Below, piece after piece: positions 3,994-15,245 of a DNA stretch of 16,405 nt. This DNA is from a virus (lineage: Duplodnaviria; Heunggongvirae; Uroviricota; Caudoviricetes), in the IMG/VR virus record IMGVR_UViG_2563366929_000009. One strand, 5' to 3'. The notes beneath the pieces were generated by a model. It saw only the letters and a list, made by a program, of their open reading frames with translations, did not search any database and was not told the origin of the DNA. A program made the position numbers and the translations under genes. The stretch's first letter is position 1, and the number at the start of each line of letters is the position of its first letter.

Positions 3994-4269
3994 GTGGCTT
4001 CTGTTTCTATCAGCTGTCCCTCCTGTTCAGCTACTGACGGGGTGGTGCGTAACGGCAAAAGCACCGCCGGACATCAGCGCTATCTCTGCTCTCACTGCCG
4101 TAAAACATGGCAACTGCAGTTCACTTACACCGCTTCTCAACCCGGTACGTACCAGAAAATCATTGATATGGCCATGAATGGCGTTGGATGCCGGGCAACA
4201 GCCCGCATTATGGGCGTTGGCCTCAACACGATTTTACGTCACTTAAAAAACTCAGGCCGCAGTCGGTAA
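3994..4269 (+). CDS. insA: IS1 InsA (transposition inhibitor / N-terminal part of InsAB' transposase)
   Basis: 91-aa [27 protein letters not shown].. recognised as IS1 InsA. Confidence 0.9.
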
Positions 4270-4691
4270 CCTCGCGCATACAGCCGGGCAGTGATGTGAT
4301 TGTCTGCGCTGAAATGGACGAACAGTGGGGCTATGTCGGGGCTAAATCGCGCCAGCGCTGGCTGTTTTACGCGTATGACAGGCTCCGGAAGACGGTTGTT
4401 GCGCACGTATTCGGTGAACGCACTATGGCGACGCTGGGGCGTCTTATGAGCCTGCTGTCACCCTTTGACGTGGTGATATGGATGACGGATGGCTGGCCGC
4501 TGTATGAATCCCGCCTGAAGGGAAAGCTGCACGTAATCAGCAAGCGATATACGCAGCGAATTGAGCGGCATAACCTGAATCTGAGGCAGCACCTGGCACG
4601 GCTGGGACGGAAGTCGCTGTCGTTCTCAAAATCGGTGGAGCTGCATGACAAAGTCATCGGGCATTATCTGAACATAAAACACTATCAATAA
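4188..4691 (+). CDS. insB: IS1 InsB' reading frame (expressed as InsAB' transposase by -1 frameshift)
   Basis: -1 frame relative to insA and overlapping its 3' end; A6C slippery motif at 4243..4251. Sequence ..[30 protein letters not shown].. is typical IS1 InsB. Confidence 0.88.
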
Positions 4692-4784
4692 GTTGGAGTC
4701 ATTACCGAGAAAGATGATGTCTACATAGCCAATTGTATAGAAAAAGGTAAGACTGAATTTAAAGTAAGCAAAGATATTGCTGCG

Positions 4785-5159
4785 TTGCCTTTCAAGGGTG
4801 AACCCATCGAGAAAATTAGGGGAGAGCTAATCAGGTCAATCAAGGAACACTTGATCAGTGCAAGCTGGCATAGCACTAAAAAGGTAATCGACCGCTATGA
4901 AGCTACATTCGATATAAAAGTACAAAAAGACTGTCCGATAGAAGCTATTGAATTGGCAACCCTCAATCGAAATCACTTAGTGCATCGTGGTGGAAAGGAT
5001 AAAGAAGGGAACCTCGTAGTGATTACAGACCAGGATCTTGAAACGCTGATTGAAAATGCATCGAACCTGGCAATTATGCTCTACAACAGTTTAAATGTAG
5101 CAACGAATAAAACCACCATTTTGCAACCAGATGACAAACCGTTCATTCATGAATTTTAA
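4785..5159 (+). CDS. Hypothetical protein, probably a 5'-truncated remnant (frame open back to the IS1 junction at 4707)
   Basis: ORF-track start is TTG with no Shine-Dalgarno. The same frame stays open upstream to the insB stop at 4689..4691, with no ATG or GTG in between. AT-rich codon composition unlike the flanking prophage genes. No recognisable family motif. Confidence 0.45.
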   Translation: MPFKGEPIEKIRGELIRSIKEHLISASWHSTKKVIDRYEATFDIKVQKDCPIEAIELATLNRNHLVHRGGKDKEGNLVVITDQDLETLIENASNLAIMLYNSLNVATNKTTILQPDDKPFIHEF

Positions 5160-6582: not shown

Positions 6583-6793
6583 TTTTATATTGGCGAGGTG
6601 ACGGGAGTTAAGTAGAATTGCTGCGGGTGCTTGAGGCTATCTGCCTCAGGCATGAACACCAAAGGCAGATAGAGAAAAGCCCCAGTTAATATTACGCGTC
6701 CTGCAAGACGCTTAACATTAATCTGAGGCTCAATCTATGAACGGCAAATCTAGGTTAGCCTCTTACGTGCCGAAAGGCAAGGAGAAGCAGGCT

Positions 6794-6949
6794 ATGAAGC
6801 AGCAAAAGGCGATGTTAATCGCCCTGATCGTCATCTGTTTAACCGTCATAGTGACGGCACTGGTAACGAGGAAAGACCTCTGCGAGGTACGAATCCGAAC
6901 CGGCCAGACGGAGGTCGCTGTCTTCACAGTTTACGAACCTGAGGAGTAA
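6794..6949 (+). CDS. hokD: Hok/Gef-family type I toxin (HokD/RelF-like, 51 aa)
   Basis: MKQQKAMLIALIVICLTVIVTALVTRKDLCEVRIRTGQTEVAVFTVYEPEE is near-identical to my recollection of HokD. GGAGA Shine-Dalgarno 9 nt upstream. The in-frame upstream extension from 6737 (ORF-track 70-aa ORF) may be a mok-like leader ORF. Hairpin GGCGAGGG-agaaat-CCCTCGCC follows the stop, as at hok mRNA 3' ends. Confidence 0.85.
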   Translation: MKQQKAMLIALIVICLTVIVTALVTRKDLCEVRIRTGQTEVAVFTVYEPEE

Positions 6950-8455: not shown

Positions 8456-8830
8456 ATGCTCATAGATTTGGTTTTACCTTACCCGCCGACGGTGAACACT
8501 TACTGGCGACGCCGTGGCAGCACATATTTTATCTCGGAGGAGGGAAAGCGTTATCGCCGGGCTGTGGCGCTTATTGTTCGCCAGCAGCGGCTGAAATTAA
8601 GCCTGTCCGGAAGGCTGGCGATAAAGGTGATTGCAGAGCCACCGGATAAGCGTCGTCGCGACCTGGACAATATCCTGAAAGCACCGCTGGATGCGCTGAC
8701 GCATGCGGGAGTGTTAATGGACGATGAGCAGTTTGATGAAATCAATATCGTTCGTGGTCAGCCAGTATCTGGTGGACGTATGGGGGTGAAGATTTACCCC
8801 ATAATGCATGAAGAGCAGGTCAAAAAATGA
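8456..8830 (+). CDS. rusA: RusA Holliday-junction resolvase
   Basis: 124 aa. Motifs ..PPTVNTYWRR.. and ..PDKRRRDLDNILKAPLDALTHAGVLMDDEQ.. match the RusA family (catalytic Asp cluster). AGGTGA Shine-Dalgarno. Confidence 0.9.
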   Translation: MLIDLVLPYPPTVNTYWRRRGSTYFISEEGKRYRRAVALIVRQQRLKLSLSGRLAIKVIAEPPDKRRRDLDNILKAPLDALTHAGVLMDDEQFDEINIVRGQPVSGGRMGVKIYPIMHEEQVKK

Positions 8831-9648
8831 AACTGGAAGATTTACCGAAATACTACTCCCCAAAATCCCCTGGCCTGACCGATGCATCGGCCTCAACGTC
8901 AAAAGATGCGCTGAGTATCACTGATGTGATGGCCGCGCAGGGCATGACACAGAATCGGGCTGAGATGGGGTTTTCTGCGTTCCTGGGGAAAATGGGCATC
9001 AGTATGAATGACAGGGCGCGGGCAACAGAATTACTGGCAGATTATGCACTCAGTCGGTGCGATCGTGTGGCGGCGTTGAGAAAACTTCCGGCAGAAATAA
9101 AACCGGTAGTGATGCGCATTATGGCTTCGTATGCGTTTGAAGATTATGCCCGTAGCGCGGCGAGCAAAAAACAGTGCCCTTGCTGTCACGGAAAAAAATT
9201 TATTGAAAGCGAGGTTTTTACAAACAAGATCCAGTATCCGGATGGTAAGCCACCAGTGTGGGCAAAGTGCACAAAAGGCGTGTATCCGTCTTACTGGGAA
9301 GAATGGAAAAAAGTCAGGGAGGTGGTAAAAGTTGCCTGTCCGGAGTGTGGCGGAAAGGGTGAGGTTTCCACCGCCTGTAAGGATTGCCGTGGGCGTGGTG
9401 TCGCCATTCATCGTGAAGAGTCGGTAAAACGTGGTATGCCTGTTATCAGAGATTGCCAGCGTTGTGGTGGTCGTGGCTGTGAAAGGCTGCCATCAACGGA
9501 GGCATTTAATGCCATATGCAAAGTGACGAGTGCTATCACGCTTGATACGTGGAAAAAATCAGTGAAACGCTTTTACGATACGTTGGTGGTTCGGTTTGAC
9601 ATTGAAGAGGCATGGGCGGAGCGGCAGTTAAAGAGGGTAACGCGATAG
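8827..9648 (+). CDS. Q: Late-gene antitermination protein Q-like
   Basis: 273 aa. Start overlaps the rusA stop (ATGA). Lies directly upstream of a pR'-like promoter. Carries four CxxCxGxG-type Cys repeats (CPCCHGKK, CPECGGKG, CKDCRGRG, CQRCGGRG). Confidence 0.8.
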   Translation: MKLEDLPKYYSPKSPGLTDASASTSKDALSITDVMAAQGMTQNRAEMGFSAFLGKMGISMNDRARATELLADYALSRCDRVAALRKLPAEIKPVVMRIMASYAFEDYARSAASKKQCPCCHGKKFIESEVFTNKIQYPDGKPPVWAKCTKGVYPSYWEEWKKVREVVKVACPECGGKGEVSTACKDCRGRGVAIHREESVKRGMPVIRDCQRCGGRGCERLPSTEAFNAICKVTSAITLDTWKKSVKRFYDTLVVRFDIEEAWAERQLKRVTR

Positions 9649-9653
9649 TGTTG

Positions 9654-9693
9654 TTGATTTTTCCCGAATCTGTGGTAAATTTGCTCTAACGAT
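9654..9693 (+). promoter_or_regulatory. Late promoter pR' with promoter-proximal pause element (qut region)
   Basis: -35 TTGATT (9654..9659), 16-nt spacer, -10 TAAATT (9676..9681). Downstream TTTGCTCTAACGATGGG closely matches the lambda pR' initial transcribed region (TAAATTTGACTCAACGATGGG), including the AACGAT pause-inducing element. Confidence 0.7.
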
Positions 9694-9730
9694 GGGCGTT
9701 TTATGCCTGACGTTAGAAGATTTTTTACAC

Positions 9731-9752
9731 CCCGCCGCCTGGCGGGTTTTTT
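9731..9752 (+). terminator. Intrinsic terminator tR'-like
   Basis: Stem CCCGCC / GGCGGG with loop GCCT followed by a T6 run, about 45 nt downstream of the pR' start region. Confidence 0.75.
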
Positions 9753-9872
9753 ATGACTGAAATCGCGTCAGTACAGTAAACGCGCTGGTGGCGGTGAATA
9801 CCTGTCTTTCAGCTTGCTGGCTTTTTCGACAAGAGTTATTGGTGTGTCACGTTAACCGGAAAAGGAAAAGAC

Positions 9873-10070
9873 ATGCTAAAACAGCAGGATATGACAGAAA
9901 CCGCCAGAGTGGTGTTTAATGAATTAAGCGTTACCGACCCGGCGACAGTCGGGGAGATAGCGCAGAATACTTACCTTTCACGCGAACGCTGCCAGTTAAT
10001 ACTGACTCAGCTGGTTATGGCGGGTCTGGCAGACTATCAGTTCGGTTGTTACAGACGCCTTCCGCAGTGA
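9873..10070 (+). CDS. Small hypothetical protein (65 aa) with possible helix-turn-helix
   Basis: AAGGAA Shine-Dalgarno before ATG. Segment ATVGEIAQNTYLSRERCQLILTQLVMAGL looks HTH-like. First ORF after tR' in the late operon. Confidence 0.5.
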   Translation: MLKQQDMTETARVVFNELSVTDPATVGEIAQNTYLSRERCQLILTQLVMAGLADYQFGCYRRLPQ

Positions 10071-10097
10071 AGGCTTTTTTATTTGTGGTAAATGGGC

Positions 10098-10128
10098 GGC
10101 TGGTGGGTGTTAGGGGCACCCACCAGCC
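10098..10128. repeat. Perfect 12-bp inverted repeat (GGCTGGTGGGTG / CACCCACCAGCC) with 7-nt spacer
   Basis: Seen directly in the sequence between the small HTH-like ORF and the methyltransferase. Not followed by a T-run, so more likely an operator or RNA structure than a terminator. Confidence 0.5.
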
Positions 10129-10220
10129 ATCTGCTCATGCGTCCGGATCACAAGCAAACCTCAGGCCCACTGCTTTGCGCAAAAGCAGAATGAGCCTATC
10201 AGAGACAGGCTTAATGATCC

Positions 10221-11270
10221 ATGCTTAATACTGTAAAAATATCCAGTTGTGAGTTAATCAACGCCGACTGCCTGGAATTTATCCGGTCGTTACCCGAAAA
10301 TTCTGTTGACCTGATAGTCACGGACCCGCCGTACTTTAAAGTGAAGCCTGAGGGCTGGGATAACCAGTGGAAGGGCGACGATGATTACCTGAAGTGGCTG
10401 GACCAGTGTCTGGCGCAGTTCTGGCGGGTGCTGAAACCTGCCGGAAGTCTTTACCTGTTCTGTGGTCATCGCCTGGCATCTGATATCGAAATCATGATGC
10501 GTGAACGCTTCAGTGTGCTGAACCATATTATCTGGGCGAAGCCGTCCGGACGCTGGAACGGATGCAACAAGGAAAGGCTGCGGGCGTATTTCCCCGCCAC
10601 AGAGCGCATTCTGTTCGCGGAACATTATCAGGGGCCGTATCGTCCGAAAGATGCCGGGTATGCGGCGAAGGGCAGTGCACTGAAACAGCATGTGATGGCC
10701 CCGCTGATTTCTTACTTTCGTGATGCGCGCGCGGCCCTGGGGATAACGGCAAAACAGATTGCAGATGCCACAGGAAAGAAAAACATGGTGTCGCACTGGT
10801 TCAGTGCCAGTCAGTGGCAGCTACCGAATGAAAGCGATTATCTGAAATTACAGGCGCTGTTTGCCCGGGTGGCAGAAGAGAAGCATCGGCGTGGTGAACT
10901 GGAAAAGCTCCACCACCAGCTGGTGGATACGTATACCTCACTGAACCGGCAGTATGCGGAGCTGCTGAGTGAATATAAACATCTGCGGCGGTATTTTGGC
11001 GTGACGGTGCAGGTGCCGTATACCGATGTGTGGACGCATAAACCGGTGCAGTTCTATCCCGGGAAACATCCGTGCGAAAAACCGGCAGAAATGCTGCAGC
11101 AGATAATCAGCGCAAGTAGCCGTCCTGGTGATCTGGTTGCGGATTTTTTCATGGGGTCGGGTTCAACGGTAAAAGCGGCGATGGCACTGGGGCGTCGTGC
11201 GATTGGTGTTGAGCTGGAGACCGGACGTTTTGAGCAGACAGTCAGGGAAGTTCAGGATTTAATCGTTTGA
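10221..11270 (+). CDS. Orphan DNA amino-methyltransferase, beta-class (N6-adenine or N4-cytosine)
   Basis: 349 aa. Catalytic DPPY motif near the N-terminus (SVDLIVTDPPYF) and AdoMet-binding FxGxG (FFMGSGST) near the C-terminus. Motif IV before motif I indicates beta-class. No adjacent restriction-endonuclease gene. Confidence 0.88.
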   Translation: MLNTVKISSCELINADCLEFIRSLPENSVDLIVTDPPYFKVKPEGWDNQWKGDDDYLKWLDQCLAQFWRVLKPAGSLYLFCGHRLASDIEIMMRERFSVLNHIIWAKPSGRWNGCNKERLRAYFPATERILFAEHYQGPYRPKDAGYAAKGSALKQHVMAPLISYFRDARAALGITAKQIADATGKKNMVSHWFSASQWQLPNESDYLKLQALFARVAEEKHRRGELEKLHHQLVDTYTSLNRQYAELLSEYKHLRRYFGVTVQVPYTDVWTHKPVQFYPGKHPCEKPAEMLQQIISASSRPGDLVADFFMGSGSTVKAAMALGRRAIGVELETGRFEQTVREVQDLIV

Positions 11271-11319
11271 AACGGATGAGATTGCAGAATTAATTACGCA
11301 CCATTATTATTCTGCTCCC

Positions 11320-11395
11320 GGCCCTTTAGCTCAGTGGTGAGAGCGAGCGACTCATAATCGCCAGGTCGCTGGTTCAAATCCAGCAAGGGCCACCA
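11320..11395 (+). tRNA. ileZ: tRNA with CAT anticodon, most likely tRNA-Ile2 (lysidine-type, ileZ-like); tRNA-Met not excluded
   Basis: 76 nt with encoded CCA. Acceptor stem GGCCCTT/AAGGGCC, D-arm AGCTCAGTGGTGAGAGC, anticodon loop CTCATAA, T-arm GGTTCAAATCC. Resembles my recollection of E. coli ileX. Confidence 0.85.
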
Positions 11396-11402
11396 TCACA
11401 TA

Positions 11403-11479
11403 CCGCCATTAGCTCATCAGGAAAGAGCGCCAGCCTTCGAAGCTGGTTGCGCGGAGTTCGGGTCCCCGAAGGCGGTCCA
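11403..11479 (+). tRNA. tRNA-like sequence with UCG (Arg) anticodon; degenerate, possibly a pseudogene
   Basis: Cloverleaf can be drawn (anticodon loop CTTCGAA) but with A.A mismatch in the acceptor stem, a mismatch in the T-stem and an atypical T-loop TTCGGGT (G at the conserved A58 position). Confidence 0.45.
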
Positions 11480-11492
11480 TTATCTGTATCCT

Positions 11493-11569
11493 GCGTTGTT
11501 AGCTCAGCCGGACAGAGCAATTGCCTTCTAAGCAATCGGTCACTGGTTCGAATCCAGTACAACGCGCCA
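11493..11569 (+). tRNA. tRNA-Arg (anticodon UCU)
   Basis: 77 nt. Acceptor GCGTTGT/ACAACGC, discriminator G and CCA. Anticodon stem ATTGC/GCAAT with loop CTTCTAA. T-arm GGTTCGAATCC. Confidence 0.85.
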
Positions 11570-11584
11570 CACTTATTTTCCCTG

Positions 11585-11608
11585 GCTCGCTTTTGCGGGC
11601 TTTTTTTT
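11585..11608 (+). terminator. Intrinsic terminator after the tRNA cluster
   Basis: GCTCGC-tttt-GCGGGC hairpin (one G.U pair) followed by a T8 run. Confidence 0.6.
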
Positions 11609-11614
11609 AAATGT

Positions 11615-11828
11615 CTCACAATTCAGGCGGTTGACTGTTGTCTGGTTTGCGGGGAGTTTGTTAAAAGAAACTGGCATGGTGAATCCCCCTGTGCGGAGGG
11701 GCAATCAGCGAGTAGGTATATGGGATAATCGCGGATTCAGGTGCTGGTACTGAATTCACCGGGAGGCACCCGGCACCATGCAATGGCACATAGCGCCACT
11801 CTCCAGCCCCTCTCCGGAGGGGCTTTTC
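11615..11828 (+). repeat. Structured unit A: promoter-like element, hairpin, SD-ATG and terminator modules
   Basis: Shares conserved blocks with unit B: CTCACAATTCAG, GTTGAC, TTTGTTAAAA, GCATGGTGAATCCCCCTG.GCGGAGGGGC, GGTATA, TCACCGGGAGGCACCCGGCACCATG, AGCCCCTCTCCGGAGGGG+T-run. Blocks are separated by divergent spacers. Tiny ORFs at 11778..11903 (41 aa) and coupled 11903..12004 (33 aa). Confidence 0.6.
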
Positions 11829-12018
11829 TGTGCCGGATACATCACAGTTTCTGGAACCTTAGGTACTACAGTATCAGTCAGGGTGCTATATTTTCAGATG
11901 TGATGAAAGCCTGTCAGCAGGCAGGGCGTATCGGAAATGACCCAGTAGAGAAAACGTTGACTCAGATACCGGTGCTGAGTTACCGGGAAACCGGCATCAC
12001 ATGACCGCTATCCTTCCA

Positions 12019-12045
12019 GGCCCATCCGCTCCGGTGGGCCTTTTT
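12019..12045 (+). terminator. Intrinsic terminator
   Basis: GGCCCA ... TGGGCC stem with 10-nt loop followed by T5. Confidence 0.55.
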
Positions 12046-12082
12046 ACTGCAGAAAACAGGTTCCCCGTTAAATGCTATGTTG

Positions 12083-12316
12083 CTCACAATTCAGTAAGTT
12101 GACAGTTGCCTGTCAGACTGGGCATTTGTTAAAAAAATTTCGCATGGTGAATCCCCCTGAGCGGAGGGGCGACTGGTGACGGTATAATCTCTGATTATCA
12201 AAACGAGAATGACGCGGGTTTAGTGGCACCGGGCTGAACTCACCGGGAGGCACCCGGCACCATGTGCATGATGATACAGATACGCGGCTTTAGCCCCTCT
12301 CCGGAGGGGTTTTCTT
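12083..12316 (+). repeat. Structured unit B (paralogue of unit A)
   Basis: Same conserved module set as unit A. Includes consensus -35 TTGACA (12099..12104) and consensus -10 TATAAT (12183..12188). Terminator CCCCTC-tccg-GAGGGG + TTTT at 12294..12316. Confidence 0.6.
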
Positions 12317-12322
12317 GTGGGC

Positions 12323-12351
12323 AAAAAAAGCCCGCGCTGGGAGACGCGGGC
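12323..12351 (-). terminator. Minus-strand intrinsic terminator, back-to-back with the unit B terminator
   Basis: A7 run followed by GCCCGCG-ctgggaga-CGCGGGC. On the minus strand this reads as stem-loop plus U7. Confidence 0.5.
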
Positions 12352-12544
12352 GGCAAGGAATAAACAATAAAACGTGAAGTAATATTTCAGCTGGCGAATA
12401 ATACCCCATAGTAATCACTCTGCGCAACTGCGCGGTCTTTTTCGAATTGCGGGCTGTCGTCTCTCTTCTGCCATTGTCCTGTAACTTCCGGACTTCAGCC
12501 CGCTCCTTATTTTACTCACAATATTATCCCGGCCGGGAGGATTC

Positions 12545-12772
12545 ATGGCATTTAAACACTATGACGTGGTCAGGGCGGTATCGCCGTCAGACCTTGCGAA
12601 ACGACTGACACAAAAACTGAAGGAGGGCTGGCAGCCGTTTGGTAGTCCGGTGGCCATAACCCCTTATACCCTGATGCAGGCGATTGCAGCAGAAGGTGAT
12701 GTGGTGGTCAGTGGTGCAACTGAGCCGGATTGGTACTACGTCATCGTACTGGCCCGGCATTCCAGGCCATAA
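12545..12772 (+). CDS. Hypothetical small protein (75 aa)
   Basis: Good GGGAGG Shine-Dalgarno 4 nt before ATG. Upstream region repeats short blocks of units A and B (CTCACAAT, CCGGGAGG). No family recognised. Confidence 0.6.
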   Translation: MAFKHYDVVRAVSPSDLAKRLTQKLKEGWQPFGSPVAITPYTLMQAIAAEGDVVVSGATEPDWYYVIVLARHSRP

Positions 12773-12976
12773 AAGACAGTCTGGCAGTGGGACTAAATGC
12801 ACTGACGCTGATGGATATTACCAAAAATGTAACGTATGGCGTTGAGATAGAAAGTCTGGCGCTGGAGATAAATGCACCGGCATCATCATAAAAAGTGAGC
12901 CAGTCAAATGGAAGGTATCGTTAAACTCACCGGTAGTGTCAGTGGGTCGTCTGAGACGCTTGCATGAGTTATCAGA

Positions 12977-13005
12977 GCCATCAGTAGTTAACTGGTGGCT
13001 TTTTT
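12977..13005 (+). terminator. Intrinsic terminator immediately upstream of the holin gene
   Basis: 9-bp stem GCCATCAGT / ACTGGTGGC (one G.U), loop AGTTA, followed by T6. Confidence 0.7.
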
Positions 13006-13040
13006 ATTGTTTTCAGCTTCCGGATAACGGGAGACGGGGT

Positions 13041-13256
13041 ATGGACCAGATGGAAAAAATCACAACAGGTGTGTCATACACCACGTCAGCGGTGGGAACG
13101 GGCTACTGGTTCCTGCAGTTGCTGGACAGGGTTTCCCCGTCTCAGTGGGCGGCAATAGGCGTGCTGGGGAGTCTGCTGTTTGGGCTGCTGACATATCTGA
13201 CTAACCTGTATTTCAAAATCAGAGAGGACCGTCGTAAGGCGGCACGGGGAGAGTAA
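13041..13256 (+). CDS. S: Class II holin (phage 21 S21-type pinholin), dual-start motif
   Basis: [71 protein letters not shown] is very similar to my recollection of S21. Met1 and Met4 give an antiholin/holin dual start. GGGAGA Shine-Dalgarno. The ORF-track upstream extension from 12936 is not supported. Confidence 0.9.
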
Positions 13257-13260
13257 TTCA

Positions 13261-13605
13261 ATGACTCAAAACTATGAACTGATTGTGAAAGGGATCCGCA
13301 ATTTTGAGAATAAAGTTACGGTAACTTTAGCATTACAGGACAAAGAACGCTTTGACGGTGAAATTTTTGACCTGGACATCTCGCTGGACCGTGTTGAAGG
13401 TGCTGCGCTGGAGTTTTATGAGGCAGCGGCCAGAAGGAGCATCAGACAGGTCTTCCTGGATGTCGCTGCCGGGTTATGTGAAGGGGATGAGCAGTCGCCG
13501 GAAAAGCGCCCCGTAATTTTAGAGGCGCAGAATGTATGGATAACCTACAAAGGAAAGCTACCGGGAAGGATTACTGGTTCCCTGAAGACTCCGCCGAAAT
13601 GGTAG
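13261..13605 (+). CDS. Hypothetical protein in the holin-endolysin interval (ydfR-like position)
   Basis: 114-aa ORF with GGGAGAG Shine-Dalgarno, starting 5 nt after the holin stop. Family not recognised from sequence. Confidence 0.65.
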   Translation: MTQNYELIVKGIRNFENKVTVTLALQDKERFDGEIFDLDISLDRVEGAALEFYEAAARRSIRQVFLDVAAGLCEGDEQSPEKRPVILEAQNVWITYKGKLPGRITGSLKTPPKW

Positions 13606-13843
13606 TTTTGCCAGCATAATTTTCTTCCAGCAATGCCGCCAGCCACTTGAAAGAATTTTGTTGTTCCTGGGACCATTTGGGGTTGCGTGATTCAAAATGA
13701 ATGGATGCCAGCGTTGGCAGCATTTGCTCCCTGGGAATTGATAAGGCCAGATGTGAAAATGCAACAGTGAGGGCATTTACATCATCCCGAAGCCTGGAAA
13801 TGCAGTCGAGCAACTCCTGTAGAGAAATGGTGCTATTGTCCAT
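13571..13843 (-). CDS. Candidate antisense-oriented gene (90 aa) inside the lysis cassette
   Basis: Minus-strand ORF with good AGAGGA Shine-Dalgarno 6 nt before ATG. Its 3' end overlaps the 3' end of the 13261..13605 ORF by 35 bp (convergent). No family recognised. Confidence 0.4.
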   Translation of the reverse strand: MDNSTISLQELLDCISRLRDDVNALTVAFSHLALSIPREQMLPTLASIHFESRNPKWSQEQQNSFKWLAALLEENYAGKTTISAESSGNQ

Positions 13844-13948
13844 AAATAATCCTCTTGATTGTCTTTACCTTTTCCCCGCCTGATTCAACAGGCCGGGACA
13901 GATAAACATATCCAGGGTTCAGAAACCGATAAATCCTGATAAATATCC

Positions 13949-14482
13949 ATGAACGCAAAAATCAAATACGGCCTGTCAGCTGCAGTTCTGGCGCTGATTG
14001 GAGCAGGCGCATCAGCTCCTCAGATACTTGACCAGTTTCTGGATGAAAAAGAGGGTAACCACACTACGGCATACCGCGATGGTTCCGGCAACTGGACCAT
14101 CTGTCGGGGGGCCACGATGGTGGATGGAAAACCCGTTTTTCCCGGTATGAAACTGTCGAAGGAAAAATGCGACCAGGTCAACGCCATTGAGCGTGATAAG
14201 GCGCTGGCATGGGTGGAGAAAAACATCAAAGTGCCATTGAGCGAACCCCAGAAAGCGGGGATCGCGTCATTCTGTCCGTACAACATTGGTCCCGGTAAGT
14301 GTTTCCCGTCGACGTTTTATAAACGAATTAATGCAGGTGATCGCAGGGGAGCGTGTGAGGCGATTCGCTGGTGGATTAAGGACGGTGGCAGAGACTGCCG
14401 TATTCGTTCAAACAACTGCTACGGTCAGGTATCCCGTCGTGACCAGGAGAGCGCGCTGGCGTGCTGGGGTATCGACAGATAA
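13949..14482 (+). CDS. R: SAR endolysin (phage 21 R21-type lysozyme)
   Basis: 177 aa. N-terminal signal-anchor-release segment (LSAAVLALIGAGASAP) and lysozyme catalytic region (..DEKEGNHTTAYRDGSGNWTICRG..). Confidence 0.9.
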   Translation: MNAKIKYGLSAAVLALIGAGASAPQILDQFLDEKEGNHTTAYRDGSGNWTICRGATMVDGKPVFPGMKLSKEKCDQVNAIERDKALAWVEKNIKVPLSEPQKAGIASFCPYNIGPGKCFPSTFYKRINAGDRRGACEAIRWWIKDGGRDCRIRSNNCYGQVSRRDQESALACWGIDR

Positions 14483-14576
14483 GCAGAATATTTTGCTGAA
14501 AAATAAGGCATGGCCACGCGGGCGGATAACATGAAATCCTGCGAAGTGGCGAAACGTAAGTGAATAAAAGTAAAAA

Positions 14577-14606
14577 CCCCGTTTGTTGGCACCAAGCGGG
14601 GTTTTG
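14577..14606 (+). terminator. Intrinsic terminator between endolysin and Rz
   Basis: 9-bp stem CCCCGTTTG / CAAGCGGGG (one G.U), 7-nt loop, then TTTT. Preceded by AAAA, so it may act bidirectionally. Confidence 0.65.
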
Positions 14607-14680
14607 TGTTTCCTGACTCCGGAAAAGTCAAAGGAGAAAGTGTGTTTGATTTTAGCAAACTGATTCGGGAGATTCGAGTG

Positions 14681-14779
14681 ATGGCTGAAAAATTATCCAC
14701 CTGGAAGTTCATTCTTATCTGGCTGGTGTTTGTGATTATGGCCTCTGGTTATTTCATCGGTCAGATACGCTGGTGGTGA
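14681..14779 (+). CDS. Candidate small membrane peptide (32 aa; alternative GTG start at 14642 gives 45 aa)
   Basis: [32 protein letters not shown] has a single hydrophobic helix. AGGAG at 14633 and GGGAG at 14667 could each serve as Shine-Dalgarno. Stop TGA is 1 nt before the Rz ATG. Below the ORF-track size cutoff. Confidence 0.35.
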
Positions 14780-14780
14780 A

Positions 14781-15245
14781 ATGAACCGCGTACTGTGCGT
14801 GGTCATCATTGCCCTGCTGGTGGCCTGTGGTGCGCTTAGTCTGGGGCTGAATCATTACCGTGATAACGCCATTACCTACAAAGCCCAGCGCGACAAAAAT
14901 GTCAGAGAACTGAAGCTGGCGAACGCGGCAATTACTGACATGCAGATGCGTCAGCGTGATGTTGCTGCGCTCGATGCAAAATACACGAAGGAGTTAGCTG
15001 ATGCGAAAGCTGAAAATGATGCTCTGCGTGATGATGTTGCCGCTGGTCGTCGTCGGTTGCACATCAAAGCAGTCTGTCAGTCAGTGCGTGAAGCCACCAC
15101 CGCCTCCGGCGTGGATAATGCAGCCTCCCCCCGACTGGCAGACACCGCTGAACGGGATTATTTCACCCTCAGAGCGCGACTGATAATAATGCAAAAACAA
15201 CTTGAAGGGGCACAGCTATACATTCGAGAGCAATGCCTCAGATAA
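14781..15245 (+). CDS. Rz: Rz i-spanin (lambda-type)
   Basis: 154 aa, near-identical over most of its length to my recollection of lambda Rz (..[107 protein letters not shown]..). Confidence 0.88.
15001..15183 (+). CDS. Rz1: Rz1 o-spanin lipoprotein (embedded in Rz, +1 frame)
   Basis: 60 aa. Lipobox-like VVGC after a hydrophobic signal, proline-rich mature part ([16 protein letters not shown]). Fully embedded in Rz as in lambda. Confidence 0.8.

Follow-up and report, generated by a model that had tools for sequence, protein, structure and literature searches.

A predicted Q-dependent late-gene regulatory cassette with a short leader in a Qin-like lambdoid prophage of Escherichia coli

The window, i.e. 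the whole stretch of 16,405 nucleotides analysed here (IMG/VR record IMGVR_UViG_2563366929_000009), represents a Qin-like lambdoid prophage located beside ompW in ExPEC-type E. coli. Directly after a gene resembling the antiterminator gene Q, it carries a sequence that recalls the late promoter PR' of phage lambda, and this is followed by a hairpin and a T run at such a short distance that a transcript started there would be expected to end after about 65 nt. The question raised by this locus is whether it represents an ordinary late-gene switch, the source of a regulatory small RNA, or a relic from which transcription no longer starts. [quoted passage not shown] The arrangement in the window is very probably a Q-dependent late-gene regulatory cassette of this type, belonging to a Qin-like lambdoid prophage.

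Q gene, late promoter and terminator

The product of the Q gene matches Pfam family PF03589 (2e-49), which also contains lambda Q, and PDB entry 7ubm (Q-lambda; 2e-38, with residues 1-113 and 182-273 aligned). BLASTP comparison with lambda Q yielded 1e-37 and a gap of 68 residues, caused by an insertion of 68 aa in the window protein that is located exactly at the zinc-ribbon 'arm' of Q-lambda (residues 114-152). This arm touches positions 11-13 of the Q-binding element as well as sigma region 4 (PMC9388147). Including the insertion, the window protein contains four CxxC pairs, two of which are extra and lie in the arm that contacts DNA and sigma. YdfT/QuuQ of the K-12 prophage Qin is likewise of the long form and is 40% identical to window Q; nothing relevant was found in the literature on ydfT/quuQ. 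Judged by these matches, the gene at 8827-9648 encodes a true homologue of Q-lambda. The features of the locus are summarized in Table 1.

Table 1. Features of the predicted late-gene cassette and its surroundings (coordinates refer to the window)
Feature	Position	Strand	Basis
Q antiterminator gene, 273 aa, Q-lambda family long form	8827-9648	+	Pfam, PDB and BLASTP matches
-35 hexamer TTGATT of predicted PR'	9654-9659	+	Sequence read; 16 nt 5' of the -10 hexamer
Promoter spacer TTTCCCGAATCTGTGG, putative Q-binding element	9660-9675	+	Spacer conservation in Q clade
Extended -10, TGg + TAAATT	9673-9681	+	Hexamer same as in lambda PR'
Predicted +1	9688	+	Register with lambda PR': 7 nt past the last -10 base, SDPE begins at +1 as in lambda
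Putative sigma70-dependent pause element, AACGAT then GGG (AACGATGGG)	9688-9696	+	Sequence and offset same as in lambda
Predicted 5'-terminal RNA hairpin, pause element paired with GCCUGACGUU	9688-9714	+	Minimum-energy (MFE) structure
TATG fitting T-N-Y-G	9702-9705 (+15 to +18)	+	Consensus scan; placement presumptive
Predicted unpaired A/U-rich linker AGAAGAUUUUUUACAC	9715-9730	+	Predicted fold
Predicted intrinsic terminator tR'	9731-9752	+	Stem CCCGCC/GGCGGG and loop GCCT (9731-9746), T6 (9747-9752)
65-aa ORF, then second predicted intrinsic terminator	9873-10080	+	ORF list, terminator scan
Putative Q-dependent late region	10221-15245	+	Pfam, tRNA and Rfam searches; annotation of identical genomes

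The stop codon of the Q gene (TAG) occupies positions 9646-9648, and the -35 hexamer begins five bases further on, at 9654. The hexamer TAAATT itself lies at 9676-9681 and is preceded by TGg at 9673-9675. In lambda (NC_001416) the layout is TTGACT-17-TAAATT-TGACTC-AACGATGGG; in the window, TGCTCT separates the -10 from AACGATGGG. The preliminary description had claimed that the -10 and the sequence downstream of it closely match lambda pR' and its pause element and stand directly after a Q-like gene, and this is borne out: the hexamer, the element and the offset of 12 nt between the two are identical in the window and in lambda. The combination TAAATT-N6-AACGATGGG occurs once without mismatch in the window, the chance expectation at two or fewer mismatches being 0.03.

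Regarding the -35 hexamer, TTTACT occupies the aligned position in 22 distinct loci related to that of the window, and TTGACT does so in lambda (NC_001416). A generic promoter scan of 8500-11000 with a threshold of 9/12 hexamer matches called no promoter. Window PR' matches the consensus hexamers at 8/12 positions (lambda PR' at 9/12) and was therefore missed by the scan, so that this result is no evidence against a promoter. At the sequence level, TTGATT-16-TGgTAAATT has the features of a sigma70 promoter directly after Q, and AACGAT at +1 to +6 those of a -10-like pause element in the initially transcribed region. T-N-Y-G is the consensus of the scrunched sigma-dependent pause, represented in lambda by TTCG at +14 to +17 (PMC9191641). 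As TATG at +15 to +18 of the window fits this consensus, the polymerase would be expected to pause with an RNA of about 17 nt; a T-N-Y-G at that position is missing from some relatives.

The terminator tR' was the top match of the terminator scan and consists of six G-C pairs, a loop of 4 nt and T6, with a hairpin energy of -12.6 kcal/mol. It extends from +44 to +65 relative to the predicted start, in agreement with the earlier claim of a strong intrinsic terminator about 65 nt from that start. On the minus strand the hairpin is not followed by a T run, which makes tR' one-directional; as no converging gene is present either, a role on the minus strand was rejected. What separates the promoter from the late genes thus has the make-up of an intrinsic terminator. 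The predicted RNA runs from 9688 to about 9752-9754 (65-67 nt). Its minimum-energy fold (-21.9 kcal/mol, z = -2.45 for the RNA of about 65 nt) comprises a 5' hairpin, an unpaired stretch of 16 nt and the terminator.

Lambda and the window share a PF03589 Q, a cassette directly after Q and a terminator before the late genes and, within the cassette, TAAATT, AACGATGGG, the 12-nt offset and a T-N-Y-G near +15. They differ in the leader, which is about 65 nt long in the window versus 194 nt in lambda, and in the promoter spacer, which measures 16 nt versus 17 nt and is unrelated in sequence, the window promoter having in addition a TG extension. The preliminary description had given about 194 nt for lambda 6S RNA, which matches the start-to-terminator distance of 193-194 nt read from the lambda sequence. 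Only the first approximately 9 nt and the CGUU pairing with them are shared with lambda 6S RNA; the predicted RNA was therefore rejected as a 6S homologue, being about 65 nt against about 194 nt long and not homologous along its length. Lambda Q makes use of a -35-like TTGACT beside the pause element to reposition sigma region 4; in the window this sequence is degenerate (TTGCTC), and TTGCTC is not conserved in relatives of the window cassette. Repositioning of sigma region 4 by Q-lambda has been described (PMC9388147).

The anatomical reading of the locus, with PR', pause element and tR' directly after Q and an RNA of about 65 nt, is strongly supported by these sequence comparisons. We infer by analogy with lambda that the promoter is active, where transcription starts, that the polymerase pauses, and that Q binds and allows read-through. 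RNA polymerase containing sigma70 would start constitutively at about 9688, and sigma region 2 would re-bind AACGAT at +1 to +6, causing a pause at about +16/+17. In the absence of Q, the polymerase would escape from the pause, terminate at 9731-9752 and release the short RNA of about 65 nt. When Q is present, this 273-aa protein would bind to the spacer between -35 and -10 and load onto the paused complex, and the Q-loaded polymerase would read through tR' and the later terminators into the genes for the methylase and the tRNAs, the STnc100 copies and the lysis genes.

Setting in the prophage and conservation among Q relatives

On the upstream side, an IS1 element at 3994-4691 abuts a truncated gene, and the repressor/cro/replication region is missing in comparison with a sister prophage in ATCC 11775. 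The IS1-associated loss of this region renders the prophage defective, and window Q is left without the early promoter that would normally drive it. The designation 'cryptic prophage' used in the preliminary description is thus appropriate, given the IS1 element and the deletion of a region that the sister prophage has kept. With the immunity/early region deleted by IS1, Q is probably not inducible in the usual manner, and PR' would be expected to yield mainly the short RNA.

The first cargo past tR' is the 65-aa ORF at 9873-10070, a hypothetical protein in E. coli genome annotation, which is followed by the second terminator (stem at 10057-10074 plus T run). The module formed by this ORF and terminator is missing in one of the related loci (L041), where tR' adjoins the sequence that is found after the module in the window. 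The possibility that a second copy of TGTGGTAAAT, at 10085, forms another PR' was rejected: this copy has no pause element, and similar sequence stands directly after tR' in L041 and in K-12-type loci, so that it represents the start of the downstream module and not a promoter. The late region then contains, in this order, a DNA methyltransferase gene, three tRNA genes, two copies of STnc100, and the genes for holin, YdfR, lysozyme and Rz; terminase and portal genes come next in identical genomes. Late genes for lysis and, in identical genomes, for morphogenesis thus lie on the same strand 3' of the terminator.

With one genome scanned for each species, 41 loci with Q relatives (38-98% identical) were obtained from roughly 20 enterobacterial genera. 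In 39 of the 41 loci the Q gene is followed by the pause motif AACGATGGG, with two or fewer mismatches, and 35 of these 39 have a GC-rich hairpin with a T run not more than 71 nt from the predicted start. The remaining four comprise two damaged hairpins, one locus without a hairpin and one with a very distant hairpin only. The sequence of the terminator changes between lineages, while its position is kept in related loci. Neither the sequence nor the length of the linker at 9715-9730 is kept between lineages, and in many relatives it measures only 3-5 nt.

In the clade closest to the window, 24 distinct loci encode Q proteins with only 54-98% identity to window Q, yet their promoters agree almost completely (about 90-100% invariance) from -36 to -7; the flanks from -60 to -37 and from -6 to -1 are variable among the same loci. 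The clade of K-12 Qin-type Q proteins has a different spacer block that is equally conserved, and one further locus (L044) has a lambda-like promoter block. The spacer at 9660-9675 bears no recognisable similarity to the Q-binding element of lambda. To our knowledge, the spacers of ordinary promoters are not conserved. The Q-binding element of lambda lies between -35 and -10, and an invariant spacer where ordinary promoters vary is what a Q-binding element in this position predicts. The spacer at 9660-9675 is therefore a candidate Q-binding element; its sequence switches along with the Q clade.

The predicted short RNA and its possible roles

In the MFE structure, the 5' end of the predicted RNA folds into a hairpin of -8.6 kcal/mol, in which the pause element, once transcribed, forms base pairs with a ...YYY..CGUU further downstream. 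The pairing between pause element and CGUU was found again, with the partner at +19 to +23 or +23 to +27, in leader classes that are otherwise unalignable, and the lambda equivalent is CAACGA...UCGUUG. Regarding the 18 distinct leaders of 27 nt, 90.6% of the cells concerned are paired, versus 29-51% with the partner slid along the leader. Three positions of the 3' arm opposite the invariant GGG switch between C and U only. Covariation amounts to a single double change, and shuffle controls were uninformative. These statistics are weak, as the pause element that forms the 5' arm does not vary, and the conservation of the 3' arm may be explained in part by its overlap with the pause-site motif. 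Taken together, the observations suggest, but no more than suggest, a conserved 5' hairpin overlapping the pause element. [quoted passage not shown]

An experimental hint of an RNA of this kind comes from the counterpart in the prophage Qin of E. coli K-12, which reads TTGCAT...GATAAAAT-TTTTTC-AACGATGGG, followed by a terminator. The predicted K-12 RNA extends on the minus strand from 1642422/3 to about 1642356-60 (about 63-67 nt). In the Term-seq data of Adams et al. 2021, an 'orphan' 3' end is listed at 1642356(-) in all three condition sheets (PMC7815308), and this position lies four bases beyond the T tract of the K-12 Qin terminator. The average reads at 1642356(-) were 103,591 in LB at OD 0.4 and 55,368 in LB at OD 2.0; the 3' end of the thrL leader had 4,852 reads in the LB OD 0.4 sheet (PMC7815308). 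These data show that an abundant RNA terminates at tR' of the related K-12 cassette, read-through from ydfT being possible in principle. The Cappable-seq tables contain no entry for a start at 1642422/3 (minus strand), the pause tables of Sun 2021 none for the K-12 Qin counterpart, and the K-12 record has no annotated feature for the short RNA. K-12 Qin resembles the window in its long-form Q, AACGATGGG, the 5' hairpin, an A-rich linker and the terminator. It differs in the promoter class (TTGCAT...GATAAAAT) and in having cold-shock genes downstream instead of the methylase and tRNA genes.

The main alternative is that the RNA of about 65 nt also acts in trans, as a small RNA bound by Hfq or ProQ, on mRNAs of the host or the prophage. 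We consider this unlikely. The preliminary description had pointed to a precedent in Shiga-toxin phages for a regulatory RNA from a short late-promoter transcript, and this precedent is real: StxS originates from a 258-nt PR'-tR' transcript of 933W-type phages, which RNase E processes to 74 nt, and it binds Hfq, activates rpoS and represses stx1B (PMC7547250). The origin of StxS from a constitutive late promoter terminated at tR' in lysogeny is comparable to what is predicted for the window. However, StxS differs from the predicted window RNA in its 144-aa Q, its 258-nt precursor and its documented Hfq binding and targets, and it has been reported only with the 144-aa Q (PMC7547250), which does not belong to the Q-lambda clade. 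The phages that bear StxS show no similarity to the cassette: a blastn search of 9620-9760 with 'distant' settings against 50,697 phage records yielded 8 matches, none of them of the 933W/Sakai type. By these comparisons, the window RNA appears neither homologous to StxS nor associated with a 144-aa Q.

Other observations that would suit a trans-acting RNA are its general sRNA-like build (a hairpin at the 5' end, a single-stranded segment rich in A/U and a U-tailed terminator), the intactness of the unit in a defective prophage, its occurrence in 31% of the complete E. coli genomes and the abundant orphan 3' end of the K-12 Qin counterpart in three growth conditions. On the other hand, the linker, which is the only obvious seed, is as variable among relatives as described above, and the conserved parts (promoter block, SDPE, hairpin and terminator) are explained by transcription control. 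No Rfam family covers the RNA at gathering thresholds, nor at E<=10 in a search of 9600-10250. The prophage sRNAs PasA-D known from EPEC RIL-seq are located elsewhere: PasB is situated within the structural-gene operon, PasA and PasC both adjoin the holin gene, and PasD/STnc100 matches at 11645-11835 and 12113-12322 instead, so that none of the four corresponds to the RNA predicted here.

According to a second alternative, the promoter is a silent relic and the hairpin merely ends transcription coming from the Q gene and the early operon, no RNA starting at 9688. The defective state of the prophage, with its IS1 element and lost early region, and hexamers below consensus would agree with this. 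It is nevertheless improbable, and more so than the trans-acting RNA, in view of the 100% identity of the sequence in many genomes, the presence of the unit in isolated phages and in a Stx2a phage, and the visible constraint on the promoter block across genera. Furthermore, lambda PR', which has the same -10, is constitutively active (PMC7547250). The abundant 3' end in K-12 is present despite an early operon that is presumably normally repressed.

A translation-coupled attenuator, in which an AUG at +5 (ATG at 9692-9694) opens a 22-codon leader ORF whose frame continues across the terminator to TGA at 9758-9760, deserves next to no credence and was rejected, because there is no Shine-Dalgarno sequence and a leader of 4 nt only, the frame is not conserved (2 to 100 codons in 23 relatives, with the start codon lost in two, as CTG and ATA), and the ATG is part of the conserved pause element.

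Leader length across the Q-lambda family

The reading of the locus as a Q-dependent cassette leaves the shortness of its leader to be considered. The preliminary description had implied that the closeness of tR' to the start is remarkable, which the comparison with relatives does not support. Predicted RNAs measure 53-71 nt (median 58) in 39 cassettes, including those of the window, of K-12 Qin and of phage Stx2_EH1910. Among the IMG/VR viral contigs, 80 encode a Q that hardly differs from that of lambda, and a PR' motif is recognisable in 67 of them. The leader is of the lambda type (about 194 nt) in 37 of these 67 contigs and short (about 55 nt) in the other 30, so that closeness of tR' is typical, not special. 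The short-leader variant has the build of the window cassette, with the SDPE, then a 5' hairpin closed by UCGUU and then a terminator, whose end lies at about +54 to +58 in these contigs; it differs in its short Q of 207 aa and in the sequences of promoter spacer and terminator. As predicted from sequence, a short leader is thus common with canonical lambda Q and is the rule with long-form Q.

Of 5,426 complete E. coli genomes, 1,695 (31%) contain the 141-bp unit at 9620-9760, which also occurs in phages Evi and mEp460_ev081 and in several phages of the vB_EcoS series. Phage Stx2_EH1910 (Stx2a-converting) contains a close relative of the cassette, followed by the same ORF, the methylase gene, the tRNA genes and then stx2A. 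In other Stx2 phages, similarity to the window is found from 9731/9732 onward only; by this alignment the terminator marks a mosaic joint with these phages.

According to these results, a very common family of prophages carries a regulatory cassette of textbook type. They indicate that the 194-nt 6S RNA of lambda is one variant, about 55-70 nt being usual across the Q-lambda family. How Q-lambda proteins read their DNA site could be studied with a natural variant, the long-form Q, in which the zinc arm is enlarged and which goes with a different conserved spacer. Since stx2 in Stx2_EH1910 stands under this cassette, toxin expression in that phage should depend on this Q/PR' pair and not on one of the well-studied 933W type. 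K-12 Qin has an abundant, unannotated terminated RNA, and the short-RNA question is therefore cheaply testable in a standard laboratory strain. It is a tentative and rather doubtful suggestion that the PR' leader of 55-70 nt constitutes an unrecognised, widespread small RNA, made constitutively from prophages of the Q-lambda family in about one third of E. coli genomes, K-12 with its Qin among them, and perhaps with a function of its own; if so, the leader may be an Hfq/ProQ regulator similar to StxS, or its 5' hairpin may serve as a stabiliser of the late mRNA or as a stopper at the Q nozzle.

The 5' end of PR' transcripts

In the Q-lambda family as a whole, including lambda itself, a 5'-terminal hairpin can be folded from the first 23-27 nt of the transcripts of PR', the late promoter predicted after the antiterminator gene Q (window 9688-9714; lambda locus L002, 788-811; comparison loci L004-L044). 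The pause element, AACGAUGGG, is paired in this hairpin with a downstream arm containing CGUU, and the sole changes in that 3' arm are between C and U, opposite G. The coordinates of the equivalent unit in the Qin prophage of E. coli K-12, together with those of the surrounding features, are listed in the table. Published Term-seq data contain an abundant 'orphan' 3' end at the terminator of the K-12 unit in all three growth conditions (3/3), and no RNA is annotated on the minus strand over the interval that the unit occupies.

Features of the window and the K-12 counterpart of its late promoter unit
Feature	Location	Strand	Remarks
IS1 element	window 3994-4691		adjoins 5'-truncated gene (4707-5159)
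hok/sok-type toxin-antitoxin locus (hokD)	window 6625-6799	+	sok RNA match, 113 bits
65-aa ORF module	window 9755-10075		bracketed by two terminators, each ending in TTTTTTAT
Perfect 10-bp inverted repeat, CTGGTGGGTG-N7-CACCCACCAG	window 10098-10128		just upstream of methyltransferase gene
Three-tRNA cluster	window 11320-11569	+	CAT anticodon (annotated Ile in genomes), Arg-TCG, Arg-TCT
STnc100 (Rfam RF02076), two copies	window 11645-11835, 12113-12322	+	136 and 161 bits; prophage sRNA family
PR'/pause/tR' unit equivalent	K-12 MG1655 1642356-1642423 (L003 6357-6423)	minus	Qin prophage, after ydfT (quuQ)

The Q protein and the region preceding the promoter

Relative to lambda Q, the window Q protein carries a 68-aa insertion within its zinc-ribbon arm (residues 114-181; window 9166-9369), with a weak match to the DnaJ motif CXXCXGXG; with this insertion the protein has four CxxC pairs, whereas lambda Q has two. 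The long form is also found in K-12 QuuQ and in all of the related loci (41/41), and clades with long-form Q are accompanied by promoter spacers unlike that of lambda. In most relatives within the window's Q clade (loci L006-L029), the stretch from the Q stop codon to the -35 element contains an extra inverted repeat (e.g., GCTCACG...CGTGAGC), which ends in TATTTACTTTT and so extends into the -35. Early transcription may be terminated by this repeat. This repeat is absent from the window, in which only 5 nt separate the end of Q from the -35.

Mosaic structure and prophage cargo

The window terminator coincides with a mosaic joint (region 9731-10085): in many Stx2 phages that carry a different Q gene, the match to the window starts only at 9731/2. 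Locus L041, which encodes a relative of window Q, is without the 65-aa ORF module; there, tR' directly adjoins the sequence seen in the window from 10083 on, and the sequence of the 10-bp inverted repeat likewise follows tR'. That repeat is not followed by a T run on either strand.

Upstream, the hok/sok-type locus precedes the DUF968-rusA-Q block. The window copy of the prophage is defective, because dicB-ydfABC, the repressor, cro and the replication region, all present in the sister prophage of ATCC 11775, have been lost.

Both STnc100 copies follow the tRNA cluster and precede the holin gene, each with CACAATTCAG-N5-TTGAC ahead and its own terminator at the end; according to a 2026 preprint, STnc100 is related to PasD. 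The same tRNA arrangement is found ahead of stx2A in Stx2 phages, among them Stx2_EH1910 and Stx2a_WGPS2; the cluster is followed by toxin genes in these phages but by the STnc100 copies in the window.
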